From an uncultured Gammaproteobacteria bacterium (GTDB lineage Bacteria > Patescibacteriota > Microgenomatia > Daviesbacterales > UBA10151), in NCBI GenBank assembly GCA_964547465.1, contig CAZJNI010000006.1, positions 2,505-66,504 of the forward strand: a DNA stretch of 64,000 nt. Direction: 5' to 3'. The translations under genes were made by a program, and so were the position numbers. Below the pieces are notes generated by a model that saw only the letters and a program-made list of their open reading frames with translations, was not told where the DNA came from and did no database searches. This document shows, one piece after another, positions 7,327-63,046 of the stretch (the stretch's first letter is position 1; each line of letters opens with the position of its first letter).

Positions 7327-7750
7327 ATTCTCCCTATTGCTTTTCGGATTTCCTTCGGATATTGTAGAGTGTGTCATGGGTCACGGGTCAAGAAAAGCGT
7401 GATACATGATACTTGATACATGATACAGATTTCCGAGCCAATAAATGTCTGGGTGTTTTTTAAGGGAAATTCAATTCAGCCCTGGTGTTTTTTCTGGCAT
7501 TCCAGGCAAATTAAGGTAGACAAAATAAATTTAGTTCACACCTCAAAAGACGGATCCAGTGTTTTTTATCATTTTTCTATCTCTTCAGGCGGGAATTTTT
7601 ACAGATTAAAATTTGATATTGGGAAATTAACATGGATGCTGGAAGCGGTAGAAGAAGAACAATAAATATCTACTTATTTCCATGTATTTCTACTGTATAT
7701 CTGGCAGGATATTCATAGAAATACGATAGATATACATAGAAACTCATCGT

Positions 7751-9040
7751 ATGAACAAAGTAATACTACATATTGATTTTAATAGCTACTTTGCAACAGT
7801 GGAACAGCAGGCTAATCCCAGGCTTCGGGGTAAACCTGTTGGGGTAACTGGAGGAGATCGTATGAAGCGTACAGTTTTGGGTGCAGCATCAGTTGAAGCT
7901 AAAAAGTTTGGAGTTAAAACAGGCATGCAGATTTGGCAGGCAAAACAGCTTTGTCCTGAAATCATTTTAGTTACTGGGGATTCTGATAAGTATTTAGAGA
8001 CTACCAAGCGTTTTTTGGCTATTTTAAACGGTTACAGCCCATATTTGGAGGTGTTTAGTATAGATGAGGTATTTTTAGAATTACCTCCCCCTGTCATTGC
8101 GAAGCCACGAAGTGGCTGTGGCAATCTTGATTCTTTTAAGAAAGATTCCCACGTCGCTTCGCTCCTCGGAATGACAAAAGAAATTGCCCAAGAGATTAAA
8201 TCCCGTATTAAAGCTGAAATAGGTGAGTGGATTACTTGTTCCATTGGAATTTCTTATAACAAATTAATGGCAAAGTTAGCCGGATCTTTGTACAAACCGG
8301 ATGGATTAGTGATTATTGCAGATGAACAGGCTGCACAGTTTATTTTGGACAGAGTGGGGTTGGATGAAATTTGCGGGATTGGTTCTAGAATTAAAAAAAG
8401 GCTTAATAATATGGGTATTTTTAACTTTTCCCAATTGAGGCAAGTACCCCTCCCGGCTTTACTGGCTTCCTTTAAATCTTATGGCCAAACTCTATATAAC
8501 ATGAGCCGGGGGATAGATAATTCAGAAGTAATACCGTTTTATGAAAAAGAAGAAGTTAAATCAGTTGGCCACAGGCACACTATTGACCATGATACTGCTG
8601 ATCCTGTGGAGATTAAACAGATTCTACTTAAATTAACAGAACTTGTGGCAAGAAGACTGCGGGTCAAAAATTTAGTGGGTAAAACAGTCTCTGTTTGGTT
8701 TAGGTATGCTGACTTTGAAGGTAATGGTATGCAAACAACAATTTCTCCCACCCAGGATGGGCTGGAAATATTTAAAGCTGCCTGGGGAATTTTTCAAAAG
8801 ATATGGGATAGAGGGGAAATAAGGATGATAGGGGTGTCTATTTCTAATTTAGCTTCACAAACTCCGCAAAACTTGTCTTTATTACCAGAATCCAAACAAC
8901 AGGAAACAATTATCCAAACCCTGGACAAAATAAATAATAAATATGGTGAATTTAGTTTGCAAAGAGGAATTTTGTTAGGTTCATCCAAAATGCGCCGGAT
9001 GCCAAATCCTTTCCTTGCAGACAGAAGATTTAAGATTTAA
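7751..9040 (+). CDS. dinB: DNA polymerase IV (Y-family, DinB)
   Basis: N-terminus ILHIDFNSYFATVEQQANPRLRGKPVGV matches DinB ILHVDMDCFFAAVE. 429 aa. Carries an in-frame repeat-element insertion at 8093-8175. Confidence 0.75.
   Translation: MNKVILHIDFNSYFATVEQQANPRLRGKPVGVTGGDRMKRTVLGAASVEAKKFGVKTGMQIWQAKQLCPEIILVTGDSDKYLETTKRFLAILNGYSPYLEVFSIDEVFLELPPPVIAKPRSGCGNLDSFKKDSHVASLLGMTKEIAQEIKSRIKAEIGEWITCSIGISYNKLMAKLAGSLYKPDGLVIIADEQAAQFILDRVGLDEICGIGSRIKKRLNNMGIFNFSQLRQVPLPALLASFKSYGQTLYNMSRGIDNSEVIPFYEKEEVKSVGHRHTIDHDTADPVEIKQILLKLTELVARRLRVKNLVGKTVSVWFRYADFEGNGMQTTISPTQDGLEIFKAAWGIFQKIWDRGEIRMIGVSISNLASQTPQNLSLLPESKQQETIIQTLDKINNKYGEFSLQRGILLGSSKMRRMPNPFLADRRFKI
8093..8175 (+). repeat. RPE-like palindromic element (gtcattgcg...gcaatc family, long form with TIR gtcatt/aatgac) inserted in-frame in dinB
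   Basis: gtcattgcgaagccacgaagtggctgtggcaatc...cgcttcgctcctcggaatgac encodes ...VIAKPRSGCGNLDSFKKDSHVASLLGMT.... Confidence 0.6.
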
Positions 9041-9076
9041 TGTACAATTTATAATGTACAATGTACAATTAAGGAA

Positions 9077-10072
9077 ATGAGAATTTTGGTTACTGGCGGA
9101 GCCGGGTTTTTAGGGTCTCACCTTTGTGACAAGCTGATAGAGATGGGAAACCAGGTAATATGCGTGGATAATTTAATCACTGGTTCTGAAAAAAATATTG
9201 AACATTTAAAAGGTAATCCCAACTTTGAATTTATAAACCAGGATGTAATTCAGCCAATCTCTATAGATAAGATTGCCACTCCCGCACCAGAATCGGTGCG
9301 GGATCGCAATGACGGTGGGGGGGTAATTGATCAGATTTATCATTTAGCCTCTCCTGCCTCGCCTAATAAAAATAATCCCCAAAGCTACATTGCATATCCT
9401 TTTGAAACAATGCAGGTTAATACCACTGGAACATGGAAGTTAGCAGAGGCAGCTACAAAATTGGGCGCTAAATTTTTATTTGCCTCCACATCAGAGGTTT
9501 ATGGGGATCCCAAAGAACACCCGCAAAAAGAAGTCTATAGGGGAAATGTTTCGACAACCGGTCCCAGGGCAGTTTATGATGAAGCCAAAAGATTCGGGGA
9601 AACCATAGTCTCTTCCTTTGTACGCGAGAAAAATCTGGATGGCAGAATAGTTAGGATTTTTAATACATACGGACCAAGAATGGCAGATGATGGCAGGGTG
9701 GTAATTGAGTTTGTAAAAGCAGCTTTAGAAAATAAGCCTTTTCCTGTTTTTGGGGATGGAAAACAGACAAGGTCATTTTGCTACGTATCTGATTTAACAG
9801 ATGGAATTATTGCGGTTATGGAAAAAGGAGTAAGCGGGGAAATATACAATTTAGGAAATCCAGATGAATTCACAGTATTGGAACTGGCAGAAAAGGTTAA
9901 ACAGTTAACTAATTCCGGCTCAAATCCGGAGTTTGTGGAAGAGTTACCAGAAGATGATCCTCTGAAACGTTGTCCTGATATTACAAAAGCAAAAGATGAA
10001 TTAGGCTGGGAGCCAAAAGTAAGCCTGGAGGAAGGTTTAAAATTACTAATTGCTTCTCTCAAAAGGGTATAA
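9077..10072 (+). CDS. NAD-dependent epimerase/dehydratase, UDP-glucuronate decarboxylase (UXS)-like
   Basis: MRILVTGGAGFLGSHLCDKL Rossmann N-terminus and a YxxxK family; UXS-like throughout. An in-frame insertion sits at 9278-9313. Confidence 0.7.
   Translation: MRILVTGGAGFLGSHLCDKLIEMGNQVICVDNLITGSEKNIEHLKGNPNFEFINQDVIQPISIDKIATPAPESVRDRNDGGGVIDQIYHLASPASPNKNNPQSYIAYPFETMQVNTTGTWKLAEAATKLGAKFLFASTSEVYGDPKEHPQKEVYRGNVSTTGPRAVYDEAKRFGETIVSSFVREKNLDGRIVRIFNTYGPRMADDGRVVIEFVKAALENKPFPVFGDGKQTRSFCYVSDLTDGIIAVMEKGVSGEIYNLGNPDEFTVLELAEKVKQLTNSGSNPEFVEELPEDDPLKRCPDITKAKDELGWEPKVSLEEGLKLLIASLKRV
9278..9313 (-). repeat. RPE-like element (gtcattgcg family, reverse orientation) in-frame in the UXS-like gene
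   Basis: The reverse complement of cccgcaccagaatcggtgcgggatcgcaatgac is gtcattgcgatcccgcaccgattctggtgcggg; it encodes the ATPAPESVRDRNDGG insert. Confidence 0.6.
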
Positions 10073-15655: not shown

Positions 15656-16045
15656 GTGAATAAAAAGAACCTATCTTTAAAAACATACATAAAAGTTATG
15701 TTCAGTTGGATTTTATTTCAGATGGTAATTTTTTTAATCGACATTTCTCTTTATCGAATCGTAGATTATAGCTCATATTTCCATTATATTTGGTCTTTAC
15801 GAATATTATTATTTGCTGTTCTCTTAGGTTTCATTTATAAAAAAGAGAATATCATTTGGGCCAATATTGCTTCTTGGATTGCCATACCCTTATTCTATAT
15901 TACCCTACCATATATTTTGAGAATTTCTAGTGAATCAGTATATGGACCCATATTAATTTTGGGGATTTTTGGTCAAATAGCAGCTATTACGGGAACCCTA
16001 ATAGCAATTTTATTAAGGAAATTAATGATTAATGCTAAACTATGA
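15656..16045 (+). CDS. Small polytopic membrane protein (hypothetical)
   Basis: 129 aa with 3-4 hydrophobic helices. Confidence 0.4.
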   Translation: MNKKNLSLKTYIKVMFSWILFQMVIFLIDISLYRIVDYSSYFHYIWSLRILLFAVLLGFIYKKENIIWANIASWIAIPLFYITLPYILRISSESVYGPILILGIFGQIAAITGTLIAILLRKLMINAKL

Positions 16046-40564: not shown

Positions 40565-41833
40565 ATGAGATTACTTGCTGCACTGGCGTTGGGTAAAAGT
40601 ATTTCCTGGTTTATTAAATTATTTAAAATAGGTGGAGCCTCTGCAGCTCCCGGGCTTTATGCTCTAAAGTTAGATCCTGACTTAGTTAAGAAATTAAGTT
40701 CTAAAATACCTAAAAATATAATAATAACCGGTACAAATGGTAAAACAACAACTGCCAGGTTACTGGCACATTTTGCAAAGGCATCTGGCCTTAAAGTTAT
40801 CAGAAACCATACCGGTTCAAATCTGGAACGCGGCATTGCCTCAACTCTTGTCAAGGTCGGACCTTGGTTAAGGTCCGACCTTGGTATTTGGGAACTGGAT
40901 GAGGCTGCTTTTAATACAGTAGCACCAAAAATAAACCCAGATATAGTGGTTTTTTTAAATGTATTCAGAGATCAGCTGGATAGATATGGTGAGATAGATT
41001 CTGTTGTTAAGGGCTGGTCTAACACCCTGAAATCCCTAAATCCCAAAACTATAGTACTGGTTAATGGTGATGATGCAAATTGCACAAAATTAAAATCAGC
41101 ATTTAAAGGAAAAGTCTATCAATTTGGGGTTAAGGATTACAAAATCCTGGGTGAATCTATTACTCATATAAAAGAATCAGAAAACCTAGATTATGAAGCA
41201 AAAAATGTGAAGCCTAATGGTTTAGAAGGCTCTAGTTTCCGGTTATCAGTTACAAGTTATCAGTTATCAGTCAATCTTCCTCTTCCCGGCATTTATCATA
41301 TTTATGATGCGCTGGCTGCTATTGCATGTGCTTCTTTGCTGAATTTTCCAATCCGCCGACTCACCAACACGCTGAAACACTTTACACCTGCTTTTGGAAG
41401 AGTTGAAAAATTGCCATTTGGATATATTTTTCTTATTAAAAATCCGGCAGGAGCAACACAGGTTTTTCAAACAATAGCACCTCAGATTAAAAAAGAAGAC
41501 AGGTTGCTTCTGGCTCTAAACGATAATTTGGCAGATGGCACAGATGTTTCCTGGATCTGGGACGCTGATTTTGAAAAGCTATCAGTTACAAGTTATCAGT
41601 TATCAGTTACTTGTTCCGGTACCAGAGCTCATGATTTAGCAAATAGATTAAAATATGCAGGCTTTAATCCTAAACAAATAAAGGTCATACCCGAGTTGGA
41701 AAATGCCCTTAAAGAGGCTAAAAAGGGTCTAAAAGGCACTCTTTTTATCCTACCCACATATACTGCCATGCTTGAGTTACAAGGCATACTAACAAAGATG
41801 GGTATTAAGAAAAATTACTGGGAGGAAATTTAA
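40565..41833 (+). CDS. murT: Mur-ligase-family lipid II isoglutaminyl synthase subunit MurT
   Basis: IIITGTNGKTTTARLLAHF (Mur ligase P-loop) plus C-terminal DUF1727-like region; immediately followed by the gatD-like GATase. Confidence 0.65.
   Translation: MRLLAALALGKSISWFIKLFKIGGASAAPGLYALKLDPDLVKKLSSKIPKNIIITGTNGKTTTARLLAHFAKASGLKVIRNHTGSNLERGIASTLVKVGPWLRSDLGIWELDEAAFNTVAPKINPDIVVFLNVFRDQLDRYGEIDSVVKGWSNTLKSLNPKTIVLVNGDDANCTKLKSAFKGKVYQFGVKDYKILGESITHIKESENLDYEAKNVKPNGLEGSSFRLSVTSYQLSVNLPLPGIYHIYDALAAIACASLLNFPIRRLTNTLKHFTPAFGRVEKLPFGYIFLIKNPAGATQVFQTIAPQIKKEDRLLLALNDNLADGTDVSWIWDADFEKLSVTSYQLSVTCSGTRAHDLANRLKYAGFNPKQIKVIPELENALKEAKKGLKGTLFILPTYTAMLELQGILTKMGIKKNYWEEI
40852..40884. repeat. 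Palindromic element (aaggtcggacctt family) in-frame in murT
   Basis: caaggtcggaccttggttaaggtccgaccttgg; encodes KVGPWLRSDLG. Confidence 0.5.
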
Positions 41834-46675: not shown

Positions 46676-47740
46676 GTGGAAGAGAAGTTAAAAAAAATTC
46701 AGCAGGAATATCTAAATAAGATTAATTCATCTAAAACTTTAAAGCAACTGGATGAGATTTTTATTGCGCTTTTTGGAAAAAATGGGGAAGTTGACCTGCT
46801 TTCCCATCAATTTAAAAGTTTACCTAAAGACGAGTTAAAAACTGTAGGTCCTCTATTTAATCGGATTAAGCAGGAATTAGAACAAGGGATAAGGGTAAAG
46901 CGTGAAGGGTTAAGAGAAGAAATTTATAAAGGCCTGGCGAATGAAAAATTTACGTTCCAACCCCAGGTGTTAGAAGTTAAAAAAAGAAAAGGGCATTTGC
47001 ATCCTGTTAACCAATTTGAAGGTGAAATTGTCAGACTTTTTAACAAATTAGGTTTTGTCAGAGCAGATGCTCCTTTAATTGACACTGATTATAATAATTT
47101 TGAGGTTTTAAATATTCCGGAAAATCATCCTGCCAGGGATCTCTGGGATACTTTGTATATAAATTCAAAGTTAAAAGTTAAAAGTGAAAAGTTACTCTTA
47201 AGAACTCATACCTCTAATGCGCAAATCAGAATTTTAAAGAACAATAAACCACCTATTAGGATGATGTCTTTGGGTAGATGCTTTAGATATGAGCAGGTTG
47301 ATGCCAGACATGAACACACCCTTGAGCAATTTGAGATTGTGTATGTGGATAAGGGAGTCAGTATGGCTCATCTGCAATTTTTATCTGAATATTTTTTTAA
47401 ATCAGTCTTAGGAAAGGATATAAAAGTGAGGCTCAGGCCAAAATATTATCCTTTTGTTGAACCCGGAGTAGGTATAGACGCTACTTGCGTTTTTTGTAAG
47501 GGTACAGGCTGTAGGGTTTGTGGTGAAGTGGGATGGTTAGAACTGGCTGGAGCAGGCATGATTCATCCTAAAGTGTTGGAAGCCGGCGGAATTGATCCAA
47601 AGGAGTATTCTGGAATTGCCTGGGGTGTAGGACCAGAAAGAATGGCTATGCTTAAATATGGCGTTGAGGATATTAGGCTTTTTAATAGCGGTGATTTAAG
47701 CTTTTTACAAGGTGCGTCCTTTGTTAAGGTCGAACCTTAA
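46676..47740 (+). CDS. pheS: Phenylalanyl-tRNA synthetase alpha subunit (GTG start)
   Basis: Class II core with FRYEQVDARHEHTLEQFE; terminal codons and stop lie inside a palindromic repeat element. Confidence 0.85.
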   Translation: MEEKLKKIQQEYLNKINSSKTLKQLDEIFIALFGKNGEVDLLSHQFKSLPKDELKTVGPLFNRIKQELEQGIRVKREGLREEIYKGLANEKFTFQPQVLEVKKRKGHLHPVNQFEGEIVRLFNKLGFVRADAPLIDTDYNNFEVLNIPENHPARDLWDTLYINSKLKVKSEKLLLRTHTSNAQIRILKNNKPPIRMMSLGRCFRYEQVDARHEHTLEQFEIVYVDKGVSMAHLQFLSEYFFKSVLGKDIKVRLRPKYYPFVEPGVGIDATCVFCKGTGCRVCGEVGWLELAGAGMIHPKVLEAGGIDPKEYSGIAWGVGPERMAMLKYGVEDIRLFNSGDLSFLQGASFVKVEP

Positions 47741-47755
47741 CCAAGGTCCGACCTG
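47723..47755. repeat. Palindromic element (aaggtcggacctt family) at the pheS 3' end, providing its stop codon
   Basis: gttaaggtcgaaccttaaccaaggtccgacctg; PheS ends ...VKVEP followed by a stop inside the element. Confidence 0.5.
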
Positions 47756-47762
47756 AACAATT

Positions 47763-52093: not shown

Positions 52094-53680
52094 CTAAAAT
52101 CTCAACCACTCCAAAATGATTTGAAGAAGACCACGATTAGTACTCACTCCTTGAGTACTGCCGCATTGACAGCTTGAACCATTCCAGGAACAACCAGATG
52201 TTTGAGCGCAAGCAGTGGCAGGATCCTGTGTAGAGGTAGTACTTCCTTGAGAAGTTTGAGTTTCTGTTGAGCTGGTGGTCGGCTGGGGAGTACTACCAGT
52301 CGATGTAGAACCGGAAGACTGACACTGACAATTACAGAAATCTCCATTCCAACTGCAAGTTCCCCCGCAAGACCTACATCCTGACTCCTGGTTCTCTCGA
52401 GTCATATTGGATGGAGCAGAGGTTGATGCCGGATAAGGTGTGGTCGTTGCGGTAGAACCAGAGCCTGAAGTTGAAGTACTGCCACCTGAAGTATAACCCT
52501 GACAATTACAGTATCCGCTGCTCCAATTACAAGTTCCACCTCCTGCTCTGCAACCTGCCTCTTGAGTCTCACGACTCCCGTAATAAGGAGTAGAATAGGG
52601 AGATGCCGAATAACCGGGTTGATATCCGCCAGTTGACGTTCCATCAGATGTATTCGAAGGCCTGCATCTATCCGGATTTTGCCTGCAGTATTCTTCAAAC
52701 TGTTTTCTTTGTTCCTCACTTCCAAAGCTGGCCGCTTGACCAGGTTGGCATTTATCTGGATTAGCTTGACAATAGCTGGCATATTCAGAAGCTTTTCGAG
52801 CGGATTCCTCTGTTTCACCATAAAATCCGCAATGACAGGTATTTTCTTTCCAGGCACAATTGGGGGTCTTATTACACATTTCTTGAGGATTATATCCTGG
52901 AGGCGGTGATCCACCTGGTCCTACGAAACCTCTTCTACATTGATCCTCATTTTCCTGACAATAAGTTCTACAAGAGGCTTCACTATTACAGCCACCAGGA
53001 CCGGTAAATGTGCCTCCGGATGTAGAGCTAAACCCGGAACAAACTGAATAGTTATTAGGATCCGAACAAAATGCCTTACAGGTAGCCTCGGAAGTACATC
53101 CACCAGGGCCAACTTGCTGCTGTCCTCCGTGTAAACCTACGGTCTTGGCGAATTCCGAACACTTTTGTCTGTTTTCTTCTTTTGAACAAAGCGATTGACA
53201 GCCAGCAGTTGAATCACAACCCAGCACTTCTTTAGCTCTGGTAATTACTTGGGTTCTGCTTAGATCTTCCACCTGTCCGCCAACCAAACCCTGACTCTTT
53301 GCAAAGGAATCACATTTATCGTGATTGGCCGAAACTTCGCAGAAGTTAAGACATGATGCTTTGGAATCACACCCTAATAGCTTTTTAGCTGCTTGTAAAA
53401 CCCTATCATTTACCTCAAACTTATCTTCTTGATAAAAACCTTTCTGCTTGGCATAGTTAATACAGCTTGTGGCATTGAGTGGATCTTCACAAAAACTGCG
53501 ACAGGCTGAATAATCTGCACATCCGCCCAACTGCGCAATTGGGTAGCTAACTCCATATTTTTCAGCCGCACCTTCAGTACTCTCTTGAGCATGAGTAGTG
53601 GTAGCCATTATGAAGGAAGCTACCAAAGCTACCAGAAATCCTATCCAGGCTGTTTTTTGTGTTGTTAAAAATTTAATCAT
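52094..53680 (-). CDS. Secreted cysteine-rich repeat protein with Ser/Thr-rich C-terminus
   Basis: Signal peptide; about 8 repeats of a C-x-C-x-C module (GCDSxAxCxxFC...KC..FA); S/T/G-rich tail. Confidence 0.5.
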   Translation of the reverse strand: MIKFLTTQKTAWIGFLVALVASFIMATTTHAQESTEGAAEKYGVSYPIAQLGGCADYSACRSFCEDPLNATSCINYAKQKGFYQEDKFEVNDRVLQAAKKLLGCDSKASCLNFCEVSANHDKCDSFAKSQGLVGGQVEDLSRTQVITRAKEVLGCDSTAGCQSLCSKEENRQKCSEFAKTVGLHGGQQQVGPGGCTSEATCKAFCSDPNNYSVCSGFSSTSGGTFTGPGGCNSEASCRTYCQENEDQCRRGFVGPGGSPPPGYNPQEMCNKTPNCAWKENTCHCGFYGETEESARKASEYASYCQANPDKCQPGQAASFGSEEQRKQFEEYCRQNPDRCRPSNTSDGTSTGGYQPGYSASPYSTPYYGSRETQEAGCRAGGGTCNWSSGYCNCQGYTSGGSTSTSGSGSTATTTPYPASTSAPSNMTRENQESGCRSCGGTCSWNGDFCNCQCQSSGSTSTGSTPQPTTSSTETQTSQGSTTSTQDPATACAQTSGCSWNGSSCQCGSTQGVSTNRGLLQIILEWLRF

Positions 53681-54006: not shown

Positions 54007-55800
54007 TTAGTCAGACTTGGTCCATCTGGAAGTAGGAGTTTTAACTCTTCCCAATTTTTGACCTATTCTTAAAACTAAAGAAAGCAGGGAGTAGTAAAAT
54101 TTTCCATGGTAATGCACTGATGCTTTGACTAAATGTTCCATGGCTTTTTCCTGACCGATTTTTTTGGTGGATGCTCCATGATGATGAATAAACTTTGCAG
54201 ATGGCACAAAATACACCGGGATACCAAGTTTTTTTAGTCTTCTGCAATATTCCAAATCCTCAAAAAATATAAAAGTCCCTTCATCCAAAAGCCCCACTTT
54301 ATATAAAATCTTCTTGGGAATCATAAAGCAAGCCATCACAAATCCTTCTACCCTAACCGGGTTTTCACCTTTTGGCAAATACATAAAGTAGGAGCCCTTT
54401 TTTTTCAAAAAGTATTCCTTAAATGCCCCGGTTATTGTGGGTAAGTGAAATACAGAATCTTGATTACTCATATCAGGAAAATATAATCTTCCCCCTAAAA
54501 CTGCCTCACCCTTAAATTCATCTTCCACCTTTATCAGATCAGATATTCCATTTTCCAAAACTTCAATATCAGAATTAAACATTAAAAAGTACTCACCTAG
54601 GGAATATTTAATAATTTTATTATAGCCTTTGGTAAAACCTTCATTTTCAGAATTCTTTAAGTATTTAATTTTGGGCAGGTATTCTTTTAAAACCTCTTTG
54701 CTGGGGTCAATATTGCCATTATCCAGAACTATTATTTCCATGTCACTCTGGCGAAAGCCAGAGTCTATATTAAAAATGCTTTCTAATAATTTTTTAACTA
54801 AATCAGGGGTGTTGTAGTTTACAATTCCTATGGACAGTTTCAATGGATACTGCACATGTTCAGGTGCGTCCTTGGTTAAGGTCGCACCTTGGTTAAGGTC
54901 GGACCTGCCCCAATTACCCAGATAAAAATCCAGAATTCCCTGTCTTTGGGCTGGACGGCCAAATACAAAAAGCTTGAGAGCTTCTCTGATTAGGGCAAAT
55001 CTTGCCCTACTTAAACCATATTTCATGCCAAAAATTAGTCTGTTTCTGGTGTGATAATAATCTGTTATTTTTGAACCAATACCTGTAGACCTGGAAACTT
55101 TATGAAAGAGGGTACTTTTTCCATTATAAAAAATCTTAAAGCCAGCATCTTTAACTCTTTGGGCAAATTCACTGTCCTCAAAGTATAAAAAATAATCTTC
55201 ATTCAGCAAACCAATTCTTTCAAAAACTTGCTTTTTTATTAAAACGCAAGCGCCGGAAAAGATATCCTGTTCTTCAACTGCATCATATTTTCCAAGATCT
55301 ACTTCATCTATCCCCCGGTGTTTATTGCCTACAAAGCTCCAGTCAAATACGCCTCCGGCGTACCAGATCACTTTACCTAAATCCTGATTTTTGTATCTGT
55401 CTTTGTGAAATTCAAAGCCTTTTTCAAAATATATTTTAGGGGAGACTAGGCCAATTTTTTCATCAGATTCTAGAGTTTTTACCAGCTCATCAATTAAGTT
55501 GTTATCATTTATTAAAGAGTCATTATTTATAATTAAAAAATAATCAGCTCCCCAAATTTGGGCATATTCAATACCCTTGTTGTATCCTCCGGAAAACCCT
55601 AAATTTGCCCCAGCTTGAATTATATCTACCTCGGGAAAGCCTTTCTGGATTGCAGAAACAGACCCATCAGATGAAGCATTGTCAACTACAATAACTTGTA
55701 ACTTGTAACTTGTAACTTGTAACTTGTTGAGCGACGCAAGGAGTTCAAGGCTATCTTTTTTACCATTATAATTAACTGTTATAATTGCTACTTTTTTCAT
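54007..55800 (-). CDS. Tandem double GT2-family glycosyltransferase
   Basis: Two GT-A modules (ITVNYNG...VVDNASSDGS and IVNYNTPDL...IVLDNGN), each with DxD/ED motifs; contains a 5x heptanucleotide tract and a palindromic insert. Confidence 0.7.
   Translation of the reverse strand: MKKVAIITVNYNGKKDSLELLASLNKLQVTSYKLQVIVVDNASSDGSVSAIQKGFPEVDIIQAGANLGFSGGYNKGIEYAQIWGADYFLIINNDSLINDNNLIDELVKTLESDEKIGLVSPKIYFEKGFEFHKDRYKNQDLGKVIWYAGGVFDWSFVGNKHRGIDEVDLGKYDAVEEQDIFSGACVLIKKQVFERIGLLNEDYFLYFEDSEFAQRVKDAGFKIFYNGKSTLFHKVSRSTGIGSKITDYYHTRNRLIFGMKYGLSRARFALIREALKLFVFGRPAQRQGILDFYLGNWGRSDLNQGATLTKDAPEHVQYPLKLSIGIVNYNTPDLVKKLLESIFNIDSGFRQSDMEIIVLDNGNIDPSKEVLKEYLPKIKYLKNSENEGFTKGYNKIIKYSLGEYFLMFNSDIEVLENGISDLIKVEDEFKGEAVLGGRLYFPDMSNQDSVFHLPTITGAFKEYFLKKKGSYFMYLPKGENPVRVEGFVMACFMIPKKILYKVGLLDEGTFIFFEDLEYCRRLKKLGIPVYFVPSAKFIHHHGASTKKIGQEKAMEHLVKASVHYHGKFYYSLLSLVLRIGQKLGRVKTPTSRWTKSD
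54869..54907. repeat. Palindromic element (aaggtcggacctt family, two tandem units) in-frame in the double-GT2 gene linker
   Basis: tccttggttaaggtcgcaccttggttaaggtcggacctg; encodes RSDLNQGATLTKD between the two GT modules. Confidence 0.5.
55692..55726. repeat. Perfect heptanucleotide tandem repeat (taacttg)x5 inside the GT2 gene
   Basis: Five exact 7-nt units, currently in frame; they encode KLQVTSYKLQV. Confidence 0.8.
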
Positions 55801-55839: not shown

Positions 55840-56730
55840 TCAGATAACACTTAATCCTGCTATATAAATTTCAGCTCTTTTTCCTTTTCCAAGAATTGAA
55901 AATGCAACTACCCTTAAAATAAGCCCTAAAATTAAAAATATTTTAACCGGTAAATAAAAAATAGGGTAGTGTTTTTGAAGATAATATTTAACTCCTTTTA
56001 ATTCATTTAGAAAGGAGGAGCTTAAATCAAAATTAGTGGAAGCGCCATGAAGGTGGATAACCTCAATTTGAGGCACATACCAAACTTTAAAACCGCTATC
56101 AGAAATTCTTTTACACCACTCAATTTCTTCCATATGCATAAATAAATTCTCATCAAAGCCTGTTGTTTTATCAAAAATTTCTTTCTTAAAAGCAAAGAAT
56201 GCTCCCATAACCCAACCTACTTCGTGGGCTTTAGAAAAAAAACTCTTATTTTTAGGATGAAAGGCTGGGGACAAGAAACCTAAACCCAAAATCCAAAAAA
56301 TAATATTAAACGGATTAGGTAGGTTACCTGCTGATGGCTGCAGCTTACCCGTGACATAATTTAATCTTGCCCCCAACAAATCACAGTTTTTATTAACCCG
56401 AAAGTAAGCTAAAGCTTTATATAAAGATTCTTCCGGAAGATAAACATCTGAATTTAAAAGCAAAATATATGGATATTTAGATTGTTTCATAGCTATGTTG
56501 TTGCCTTTGGAAAAACCGGTGTTTTCCTTAGATGCAATGAGTTTCACCCAGGGGAAATCTTGTCTTATCATCCCCAAAGAGCCATCAGATGAGGCATTAT
56601 CCAAGACAATCACCTCAATTTTATTCCCCATTTTTTTCTCACAATAATCTTTAGCTAACTTCAGTTTTTCCAAACATCTTTTAGTAATATCTTTTGTGTT
56701 GTAGCTTAAAATAATTATCGAGAGATCCAA
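55840..56730 (-). CDS. GT2-family glycosyltransferase
   Basis: IIILSYNTKD...VIVLDNASSDGS. Confidence 0.7.
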   Translation of the reverse strand: MDLSIIILSYNTKDITKRCLEKLKLAKDYCEKKMGNKIEVIVLDNASSDGSLGMIRQDFPWVKLIASKENTGFSKGNNIAMKQSKYPYILLLNSDVYLPEESLYKALAYFRVNKNCDLLGARLNYVTGKLQPSAGNLPNPFNIIFWILGLGFLSPAFHPKNKSFFSKAHEVGWVMGAFFAFKKEIFDKTTGFDENLFMHMEEIEWCKRISDSGFKVWYVPQIEVIHLHGASTNFDLSSSFLNELKGVKYYLQKHYPIFYLPVKIFLILGLILRVVAFSILGKGKRAEIYIAGLSVI

Positions 56731-57626
56731 AGTTTTGCCTTTCTGTAATGCTCTAACATTTTAATCCCGGCTAAAATAAAATCCCGAATTATTGGAGGGT
56801 ATTTATTATAAAAGTGTTTTTTATAAAAGATTCTCATGGCAGAGGCCCCATGAGTTATGGTTTTTGATTTTGCTTTACCTGCAGATGAACCTTTATAGTG
56901 AATTATTTTCTCATCAGGATAAAAGAAAATTTTCCAGCCTTTCAGCTTTAGGGAATAACAAAATTCTATATCTTCACCGTTCCAAAAATAATCCGTGTCC
57001 CACCAGCTTATTGCATCCCCGGCAATTTTTCTGACCATTAAAAAAGCCCCTGTTAAACAATCTATTTCATGAGTTTTGCTAATGTCTAAATAAGACGCTG
57101 TATATCCAGAAAAAAGGGGAACATGAGGGAATAATTTTGATAAACCAGAAAAATAACAGAAAGAATTCCAAGGGGTAGGGAAACCTCTATGACATGAGTA
57201 ATCCAACTTTCCATCTGGTAATTCTACTCTACAGGTAATCGCGCCAATGTCAGGATTAGACATAAGAAACTTAAGTGACTTACTTATGGCATCGTTCACC
57301 ACCGCAGTATCCGGGTTTAAGAATAAGACAACAGGAGCTTTGGCTTTCTTTACCCCCACATTATTGCCGCCGGAAAAGCCTAGATTTGATTTGTTTTCCA
57401 CCAGCTCTACAACACCGTCATTGCGAGGAGTCTTCGACGAAGCAATCTTATACTTCTTCCTAACTGCTTCCACTGACCCATCTTCAGATGCATTATCCAC
57501 CACAATAACATGGTACTTATAACTTGGTACTTGGGACTTAAAAACTGACACTAAACAATTTAAAAGTAGTTCCTTAACATTGTAGTTAAGAATAATAATA
57601 GAAAGATCAGGATTTGAATCAACCAT
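56715..57626 (-). CDS. GT2-family glycosyltransferase
   Basis: IIILNYNVKELL...VIVVDNASEDGS. Confidence 0.7.
   Translation of the reverse strand: MVDSNPDLSIIILNYNVKELLLNCLVSVFKSQVPSYKYHVIVVDNASEDGSVEAVRKKYKIASSKTPRNDGVVELVENKSNLGFSGGNNVGVKKAKAPVVLFLNPDTAVVNDAISKSLKFLMSNPDIGAITCRVELPDGKLDYSCHRGFPTPWNSFCYFSGLSKLFPHVPLFSGYTASYLDISKTHEIDCLTGAFLMVRKIAGDAISWWDTDYFWNGEDIEFCYSLKLKGWKIFFYPDEKIIHYKGSSAGKAKSKTITHGASAMRIFYKKHFYNKYPPIIRDFILAGIKMLEHYRKAKLWISR

Positions 57627-60991: not shown

Positions 60992-63046
<2,055 letters not shown>

Follow-up and report, generated by a model that had tools for sequence, protein, structure and literature searches.

The stretch of DNA analysed here, 64,000 nucleotides long (contig CAZJNI010000006.1, positions 2,505 to 66,504; hereafter the window), carries a perfect tract of five heptanucleotides, (TAACTTG)5, inside a gene for an enzyme with two glycosyltransferase family 2 (GT2) domains, hereafter GT2d. 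A preliminary description of the sequence regarded this tract as a contingency locus, in which gain or loss of a unit would shift the frame of a surface-glycan gene. Our analysis favours, with a probability of roughly 0.55, the view that the tract is a slippage-prone, homogenised, in-frame heptanucleotide microsatellite belonging to a lineage-wide family, and not a dedicated phase-variation device. The arrays of this family consist of about 4-5 units (28-36 nt) and occupy fixed, structurally permissive positions of conserved proteins and gene junctions. The site in GT2d is a heptamer array throughout the clade, i.e. Candidatus Daviesbacteria (Microgenomates, Candidate Phyla Radiation, CPR), and its overall length, hence its reading frame, is held constant. 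This lineage-wide pattern is more interesting than the tract itself, whose interest as a candidate switch is moderate.

The tract in GT2d and its orthologous site

The preliminary description was right about the tract as such: Tandem Repeats Finder (TRF) and inspection of the letters give a perfect period-7 array at 55692-55727, with 5.1 copies of the unit TAACTTG and 100% matches. The unit so written is antisense to the open reading frame (ORF) at 54007-55800 (minus strand); on the coding strand the tract reads (CAAGTTA)5 and takes up nucleotides 75-109 of the gene. It is the sole exact periodic run with at least 14 matches found in the window at periods 2-15, and in a shuffle of 717 kb of related DNA arrays reaching 3.5 copies were absent whatever the period. 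A chance origin of the tract does not fit these counts. The array encodes residues 25-36 of the double-GT2 protein, NKLQVTSYKLQV (N25-KLQVTSYKLQ-V36), which precede an invariant VVDN (D40 and N41 being invariant columns). Since seven is not a multiple of three, every 21 nt hold three units read in three frames, which results in a peptide with a period of seven residues, QVTSYKL. An AlphaFold2 model of GT2d, with a mean predicted local distance difference test score (pLDDT) of 78, has helix alpha1 at residues 14-26, a loop at 27-31 and strand beta2 at 32-40. The array residues correspond to the end of the helix, the loop and the first half of the strand, and the periodic peptide is thus predicted to form the alpha1-beta2 connection of the first GT2 domain.

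We compared the site in the DNA of 35 species representatives and about 37 metagenomic contigs (about 72 loci, designated L) and in 120 homologous proteins (designated P). The distance between the anchors NYNGK and VVDN is exactly 69 nt in 50 scored loci, which comprise 39 distinct sequences; most other loci have 69 nt plus an in-frame GC-rich hairpin insert of 12-36 nt, and the distance is 54 nt in two loci and 75 nt in two more. All scored orthologs are in frame except L062, and the N-terminus is intact in 119 of the 120 proteins. No ortholog has an array that is 21 nt longer or shorter, the differences in length being unrelated hairpin inserts or small deletions, and the arrays are identical in 20 of 22 pairs of near-identical loci. 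The heterogeneity of repeat number among relatives, which the preliminary description would have led one to expect, was not encountered: there is one length in the 50 loci and a single OFF allele in the whole sample.

The unit, by contrast to the length, changes between lineages. Lineage-specific units at the site are CTACAAA, CTACCAA, GGTTACA, TTGACAA and others, and the units listed for it include CAAACTA, CCAACTA, CGAACTA, CAGGTTA, ACAATTG, AAGACTG, TACCCTA, CGATTTA and CAAATTA. The same segment has a period of seven residues in the homologous proteins, with differing sequences (LRTTNYELRT, LPTTNYQLLT, LKTENCELKT, LQVTGYRLQV, LTIDNGQLKI, LYPIPYTLYP). The identity of units within arrays is 0.716, compared with 0.531 for units at equal position in different orthologs, and none of 2000 permutations reached the observed value; in the adjacent non-repeat flank the relation is reversed (0.269 within, 0.694 between orthologs). 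As units resemble their neighbours in the same array more than their counterparts in orthologs, they evolve in concert. The allele of the window (5 units, 35 nt) is the longest and the only perfect one among the 39 distinct alleles, and is therefore probably the most slippage-prone allele observed, while in some lineages the arrays at this site have decayed. Indeed, the site tolerates change: orthologs carry in-frame inserts, and its modelled position at the end of a helix, a loop and the start of a strand would be permissive.

Divergence that takes in the array was also seen within one cluster of proteins (P0053). There P0135 is near-identical to P0133, P0136 and P0137 over most of its length, apart from a 3-residue deletion, and diverges from them in the first ~40 residues, among them the array (LRTTNYELRT versus LQITNYKLQT) and some 10 flanking residues. 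This pattern suggests a recombination tract that ends near the array.

That a change by one 7-nt unit would frameshift the gene is borne out in silico: with four units translation of GT2d stops after 35 aa and with six after 41 aa, whereas arrays of 2, 5 or 8 units keep the frame and give a full-length product. An in-frame restart codon was sought between aa 37 and 140 and none was found. The frameshift also has a natural counterpart. The orthologous array of L062, from another Daviesbacteria species, has exactly one unit fewer than the arrays of L011 and L106, and this locus is the source of the truncated protein P0114. L062 is 99.61% identical to L011 and L106 over 3.8 kb (L011 10096-13941), and two of its eight substitutions relative to L011 fall inside the 35-nt array. 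These differences point to local hypermutability, or to an assembly artefact confined to the repeat. C-terminal fragments in the cluster of P0114 (P0122, P0124-P0126) are uninformative on the array. Four contigs that start at 'query residue 34' (L108, L109, L111 and L112) were considered as possible assembly breaks in the array and rejected, because their starts lie in the second GT2 domain (EVIVLDNG), which aligned to the first by paralogy.

GT2d itself is a protein of 597 aa with two PF00535 domains, encoded by the last of three co-directional GT2 genes. Its homologs are found in Candidatus Daviesbacteria, the best at 81% identity and hundreds at 65-80%; their occurrence throughout the clade at 65-81% identity marks GT2d as a conserved core gene of this group. 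The closest NCBIfam model is a rhamnosyltransferase, with a score below the cut-off, and a sequence search of the PDB returned a weak GT2 match alone (6p61, E = 1.4e-6). A promoter and terminator scan found no terminator and no promoter linked to the tract, only a single unrelated promoter-like match, and folding of the tract RNA gave no structure (z-score +1.0). The GT2d and neighbouring GT2 proteins of the window (54007-55800 and 55840-56730) have no record in the protein and contig indexes, where the MurT protein of the window is matched at 100% (P0150). One neighbouring gene of the window was found on a Logan contig of 1.1 kb, the sole such contig, from SRR12113384, a dataset in which this strain occurs. 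Directly downstream of the GT2 cluster, at 52094-53680 (minus strand), lies the gene of a secreted 528-aa protein without Pfam match, which has repeated Cys-rich modules and a C-terminal half rich in Ser, Thr and Gly, and which is possibly a glycosylation substrate.

Heptamer arrays and hairpin elements in other genes

In 717 kb of DNA from Daviesbacteria TRF gave 197 hits, of which 59 have period 7 (51 with at least 3.5 copies), compared with 2 of 53 hits in 426 kb from other phyla. The arrays are short and dispersed, seven of 4-5 copies being found by TRF in the window and 69 in the 717 kb of the clade. No period-7 array was detected in the 34 kb available from distant CPR relatives (49-50% identity; L093-L096, L101), and in the present sample the phenomenon seems to be limited to a Daviesbacteria-level clade. 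At the protein level, 13-32% of the homologs are 7-aa periodic at array sites, while this is the case for 0.76% of background windows.

The preliminary description had also noticed related, degenerate motifs in murT (two) and in the neighbouring GT2 gene, and TRF recovers arrays in both genes. The upstream single-domain GT2 paralog contains, at the homologous position (SQVPSYKYHVIVVDN), a decayed array CAAGTAC CAAGTTA CAAGTAC CATGTTA (57505-57539, minus strand), and its ortholog in L019 has a perfect (AAGTATC)4.6 in this place. The first array of murT, TTATCAG TTACAAG TTATCAG TTATCAG (41242-41271, plus strand), encodes LSVTSYQLSV, and 20 of 62 MurT homologs show a 7-aa period at the orthologous site. 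The second is equally real, but its position, originally given as 41590-41620, was about 10 nt off: it lies at 41580-41609 (plus strand) and has 28 identical bases, TATCAGTTACAAGTTATCAGTTATCAGT, in common with the first array 336 nt away. It stands in place of 'LSKQQIE-AII' of the S. aureus MurT, with a one-residue difference in length, and three array sites are known from MurT homologs. TTATCAG, which makes up three of the four units of the murT arrays, is a TAACTGA-type unit in reverse orientation. All these motifs had furthermore been said to overlap the conserved GT2 region QxY..EvIVVDN. This applies to the two copies in GT2 genes, which lie before IVVDN, but not to those in murT, which are outside any GT2 motif because murT encodes a Mur-ligase/MurT_C protein.

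Genes of translation harbour such arrays as well. In pheS, (AAAGTTA)4 at 47167-47194 (plus strand) encodes KLKVKSEK in the loop between DTLYI and LLLRTHTS; other units take this place in L003, L004, L009 and L029, and a second site is known in PheS. The PheT site lies between QTYSFYS and ANPIS in a segment that comprises 16 aa with or without an array. Here, as with the second murT array, arrays overwrite the sequence in place and leave its length unchanged. The weakest member of the family in the window (62412-62435, minus strand; KEKVKSEK) has the same unit family as the pheS array, and its host ORF is taken, from its sequence, to be atpD. With equivalent arrays in pheS and pheT, which are essential, and in murT, a cell-wall gene, the architecture is genome-wide and not, as had been supposed, specific to surface-glycan genes.

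Most arrays found, the tract in GT2d among them, are reversed and located within ORFs (in the forward direction they would introduce stop codons), and a minority abut or contain start codons. Those at gene junctions include the upstream gene's stop codon and/or the downstream gene's start codon, and slippage of units would regenerate these signals. For example, the last unit of (TGATACA)4 at 7400-7427 (plus strand) holds the ATG of the ORF 7420-7665, and the adjoining arrays (AAGATTT)2.3 and (AATGTAC)4.4 at 9025-9069 (plus strand) cover the dinB stop codon and finish 8 nt short of an ATG at 9077. In several genomes (TGATTTA)n likewise separates GT2d from the GT2 paralog, and L009, L010, L024, L031 and L032 have junction arrays immediately upstream of where GT2d starts. 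The dinB gene, which encodes DNA polymerase IV (7751-9040), has heptamer arrays on both flanks; NCBIfam matches it in two separate stretches, so that the predicted protein may contain an insertion, and any link of dinB to repeat formation is pure speculation.

Several unit families coexist in one genome. On the coding strand the window has TTACAAG (GT2d), TTATCAG and TTACAAG (murT, twice) and TTAAAAG (pheS), and its further units include TGATACA, AATGTAC and AAAGTTA. The families CTACNAA, TTACARG, TTGACAA and ACGATTA recur at unrelated genes in many genomes.

Palindromic and hairpin-forming elements accompany the arrays. One palindromic family, AAGGTCSGACCTT-GGTT-AAGGTCSGACCTT with 13-bp arms, lies in frame in coding sequence and encodes ..RSDL.. 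peptides. Palindromic repeats occur in the window in murT (40837-40882), at the pheS stop and pheT start (47710-47759) and in the inter-domain linker of GT2d (54857-54924), where they coincide with a disordered segment (aa 298-319, pLDDT <50). The core motifs of the palindrome are also present in L001, L002, L004, L026, L063, L064 and L096, and are nearly absent from 597 kb of other phyla. The in-frame GC-rich hairpin inserts of 12-36 nt lie inside the GT2d arrays of L003, L009, L015, L016, L018, L021, L023, L027, L064, L075, L081 and L090, and likewise at MurT sites 0 and 2 in many homologs (e.g. GCCCC-TTCG-GGGGC, GCTTCGC-CC-GCGAAGC and CCTCC-TTT-GGAGG). One such type of insert, GGGCCCCCGMAGGGG, is common to arrays of different units (L009/L104 and L075). 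Finally, L027 contains a 27-nt element, AAGATCGTCAGATCG(C/T)AAGCT(T/C)TGCTT, in the GT2d array (7735-7761) and again in the PheT array (15839-15865), i.e. in two unrelated genes 8 kb apart. The two copies are identical at 25 of 27 positions; the element is also present in L068, and it may represent a mobile element of very small size with arrays as its target.

Slippage, selection and alternative explanations

A simple course of events could account for a homogenised array of constant length. Neighbouring units would mispair during replication or repair, whereby variants would be copied from unit to unit and a unit would occasionally be added or removed, and purifying selection on the enzymes would eliminate out-of-frame and wrong-length alleles. 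Selection of this kind would keep the array in GT2d at five units (2 mod 3). Gain or loss of one unit would produce a null allele ending after 35 or 41 aa, and such alleles would be rare. The tract would then be a mutational hotspot for reversible gene knock-out, arising as a by-product of a lineage-wide repeat-forming process. The tract can, we conclude, act as such a hotspot; its use as a switch is not supported by the data.

Several observations weigh against this account. Simple local slippage predicts length polymorphism (by 7 or 21 nt in either direction), yet the length is almost invariant, so that a length-neutral conversion step has to be assumed. One subclade keeps an imperfect pattern (LPTTNYQLLT) across diverged species; homogenisation is therefore real but episodic, not continuous. 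Non-homologous arrays of one genome are moreover more alike than arrays of different genomes: the mean distance between units, minimised over rotation and strand, is 2.46 within genomes and 2.79 between them (permutation p ~0.0004), and pairs at a distance of at most 1 amount to 17% and 5.4%, respectively. Purely local slippage explains neither this likeness nor the identical 28-nt arrays in murT, and it leaves unexplained why a few unit families recur in many genomes and how arrays originate in place without a change of length. Besides, a perfect tract in a glycan gene is just what a true contingency locus is expected to look like.

A contingency locus proper, in which slippage at the five units would toggle the double-GT2 enzyme between ON and OFF at an adaptive rate and so vary a surface glycan (for phage escape or in the interaction of an episymbiont with its host), nevertheless seems rather unlikely to us. 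The frame logic of the preliminary description stands: the tract is perfect and located in the 5' coding part, its unit is not a multiple of three, and a change of unit brings an immediate stop with no in-frame restart. The OFF allele stands as well: at the orthologous site, one unit is deleted in a strain that shares 99.6% identity with an ON strain. That the gene belongs to a cluster of three GT2 genes, followed downstream by that of a secreted protein rich in Cys and Ser/Thr, and that the window allele is longer than all others and uniquely perfect, would also agree with a switch. However, the hallmark of contingency loci is a variable copy number with many OFF genomes, and both are absent here. 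One OFF allele and essentially one length in the loci and proteins compared are far from the 3-53 repeats and 65.6% OFF of neuO (see below), and near-identical loci nearly always share identical arrays. GT2d belongs to the conserved core of the clade, the same arrays are met with in pheS, pheT, murT and atpD, where switching would be lethal or costly, and five units are at the low end for hypermutable tracts. Quite another origin, which we likewise hold to be possible but doubtful, is hinted at by the identical 28-nt arrays of murT, the units common to non-homologous sites, the recurrent unit families and the 27-nt element of L027. The arrays and the palindromic and hairpin elements of 12-46 nt would, on this assumption, be a family of tiny elements, of copy-and-paste or template-converted type, written over permissive loops of conserved Daviesbacteria proteins; a lineage-specific mechanism, e.g. 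ectopic conversion or oligonucleotide-templated repair, may rewrite about 30 nt of coding sequence with the length unchanged.

It appears improbable that the arrays are, as has been proposed for the TAACTGA repeats of Beggiatoaceae, cis-acting sites for a trans-acting RNA- or DNA-binding factor. Selection for binding would in that case generate and preserve 4-5 tandem heptamers at any place where the protein permits them, and in each lineage unit and factor would evolve together. Replacement of sequence in place, the narrow size of coding arrays (4-5 units) and the greater likeness of units at unrelated loci of one genome would fit such a role, and so would intergenic arrays that abut or contain start codons, as in BOGUAY (PMC4679880), and the murT unit, which is TAACTGA in reverse (LSVISYQ is encoded by reverse TAACTGA repeats). 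Yet there are several different units in one genome, unlike the single dominant TAACTGA, and in many orthologs the arrays have decayed and show no trace of constraint. That arrays begin at four units is due in part to the threshold of detection, the tract RNA is unstructured and unremarkable, and no candidate factor has been identified. Least tenable of all is an explanation at the protein level, in which the periodic peptide would be a GT2 motif under conservation (QxY..EvIVVDN), with the repeat in the DNA as its coincidental outcome. It is true that the array overlaps the usual 'Q-T-Y ... E-I-I-V-V-D-N' region and that the paralog has its own version there. But the periodicity is 7 nt and not 21, and as protein the three codon phases of the unit have nothing in common; orthologs vary freely in the peptide and retain the periodicity of the DNA, and the same DNA unit is found in murT and pheS, i.e. 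in proteins that are not GT2 enzymes. The excess of unit identity within arrays over positional conservation between orthologs refutes this explanation.

In annotation the tract should be flagged as a slippage hotspot and not as an established phase-variable surface-glycan switch. A frameshift at this place in another assembly is probably a real allele or an artefact of repeat collapse, not an ancient pseudogene. Short heptanucleotide arrays that persist at identical codons of essential genes across an entire clade lie outside the standard picture of bacterial microsatellites. They offer a tractable case of repeat-forming mutation, or of a still unknown copying mechanism, shaping protein loops in the reduced genomes of CPR bacteria.

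Comparison with known repeat systems

The closest mechanistic analogue is neuO of the E. coli K1 prophage CUS-3, whose (AAGACTC)n comprises 3-53 repeats and was OFF in 65.6% of 64 genomes (PMC13001214). Like the tract in GT2d it is a heptanucleotide repeat in the 5' coding part of a gene for a glycan-modifying enzyme, in which one residue class modulo 3 gives a full-length product and slippage yields ON and OFF states. By contrast, neuO is an accessory prophage gene that is OFF in about two thirds of genomes, while GT2d is a core gene with an array of fixed length and an OFF frequency of about 1%, and equivalent arrays reside in essential genes. The wide in-frame copy range of such a variable number tandem repeat is not seen here, where no ortholog differs by 21 nt. 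In H. influenzae, 7-bp repeats in the promoters of hmw1A and hmw2A and other heptanucleotide simple sequence repeats modulate surface proteins by slippage (PMC2651432). Repeats of this type differ from the present arrays in that they are located in promoters or comprise 8-38 units, and their copy number varies between strains.

On a genomic scale, the survey of long simple sequence repeats by Mrazek et al. (2007), as summarised in PMC4679880, found a genome-specific excess of 7-nt repeats, for which polymerase slippage with a 7-nt footprint was proposed; according to the same summary, such surveys stress long, length-polymorphic arrays, and units that are not a multiple of three are depleted in coding regions. 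Tandem units of 5-11 nt in excess of the expectation from composition are found here too (51 against 0 in shuffled DNA, period 7), but compared with the repeats so summarised they form short arrays, whose length is fixed and which mostly lie in coding sequence. Dispersed heptamer arrays are also represented by the short tandemly repeated repetitive (STRR) heptamers of cyanobacteria and by small dispersed repeats, and the palindromic elements of Rickettsia are tiny palindromes that have entered protein-coding genes in frame. By their general description, these systems are relevant mainly to the palindromic and hairpin inserts.

The closest descriptive analogue are the TAACTGA repeats known from marine Beggiatoaceae, Cyanobacteria and Bacteroidetes, which form sets of 2-6 copies, some of them abutting start codons, and whose copies in reverse orientation within ORFs encode LSVISYQ (MacGregor 2015, PMC4679880). 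The murT arrays (TTATCAG, LSVTSYQLSV) have that unit in that orientation, and the unit of the tract on the plus strand, TAACTTG, is two bases apart from it. Related heptamers are seldom repeated in the TAACTGA system, whose sets are chiefly intergenic, forward in orientation and a few nt away from a start codon. Short dispersed sets characterise both systems. In BOGUAY, however, one unit dominates, most repeats are intergenic and copies in ORFs lie at protein termini, whereas the arrays described here belong to several unit families and lie mostly inside conserved domains at orthologous positions, with the unit changing between lineages. The hosts reported for TAACTGA do not include CPR or Patescibacteria, and a search of the literature for heptanucleotide repeats in Patescibacteria found no specific report. 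The present arrays thereby extend TAACTGA-like repeats to a phylum without an earlier report in the literature searched. What is new relative to the known systems is a heptamer array of fixed length that switches its unit and stays in frame at orthologous codons of conserved genes.

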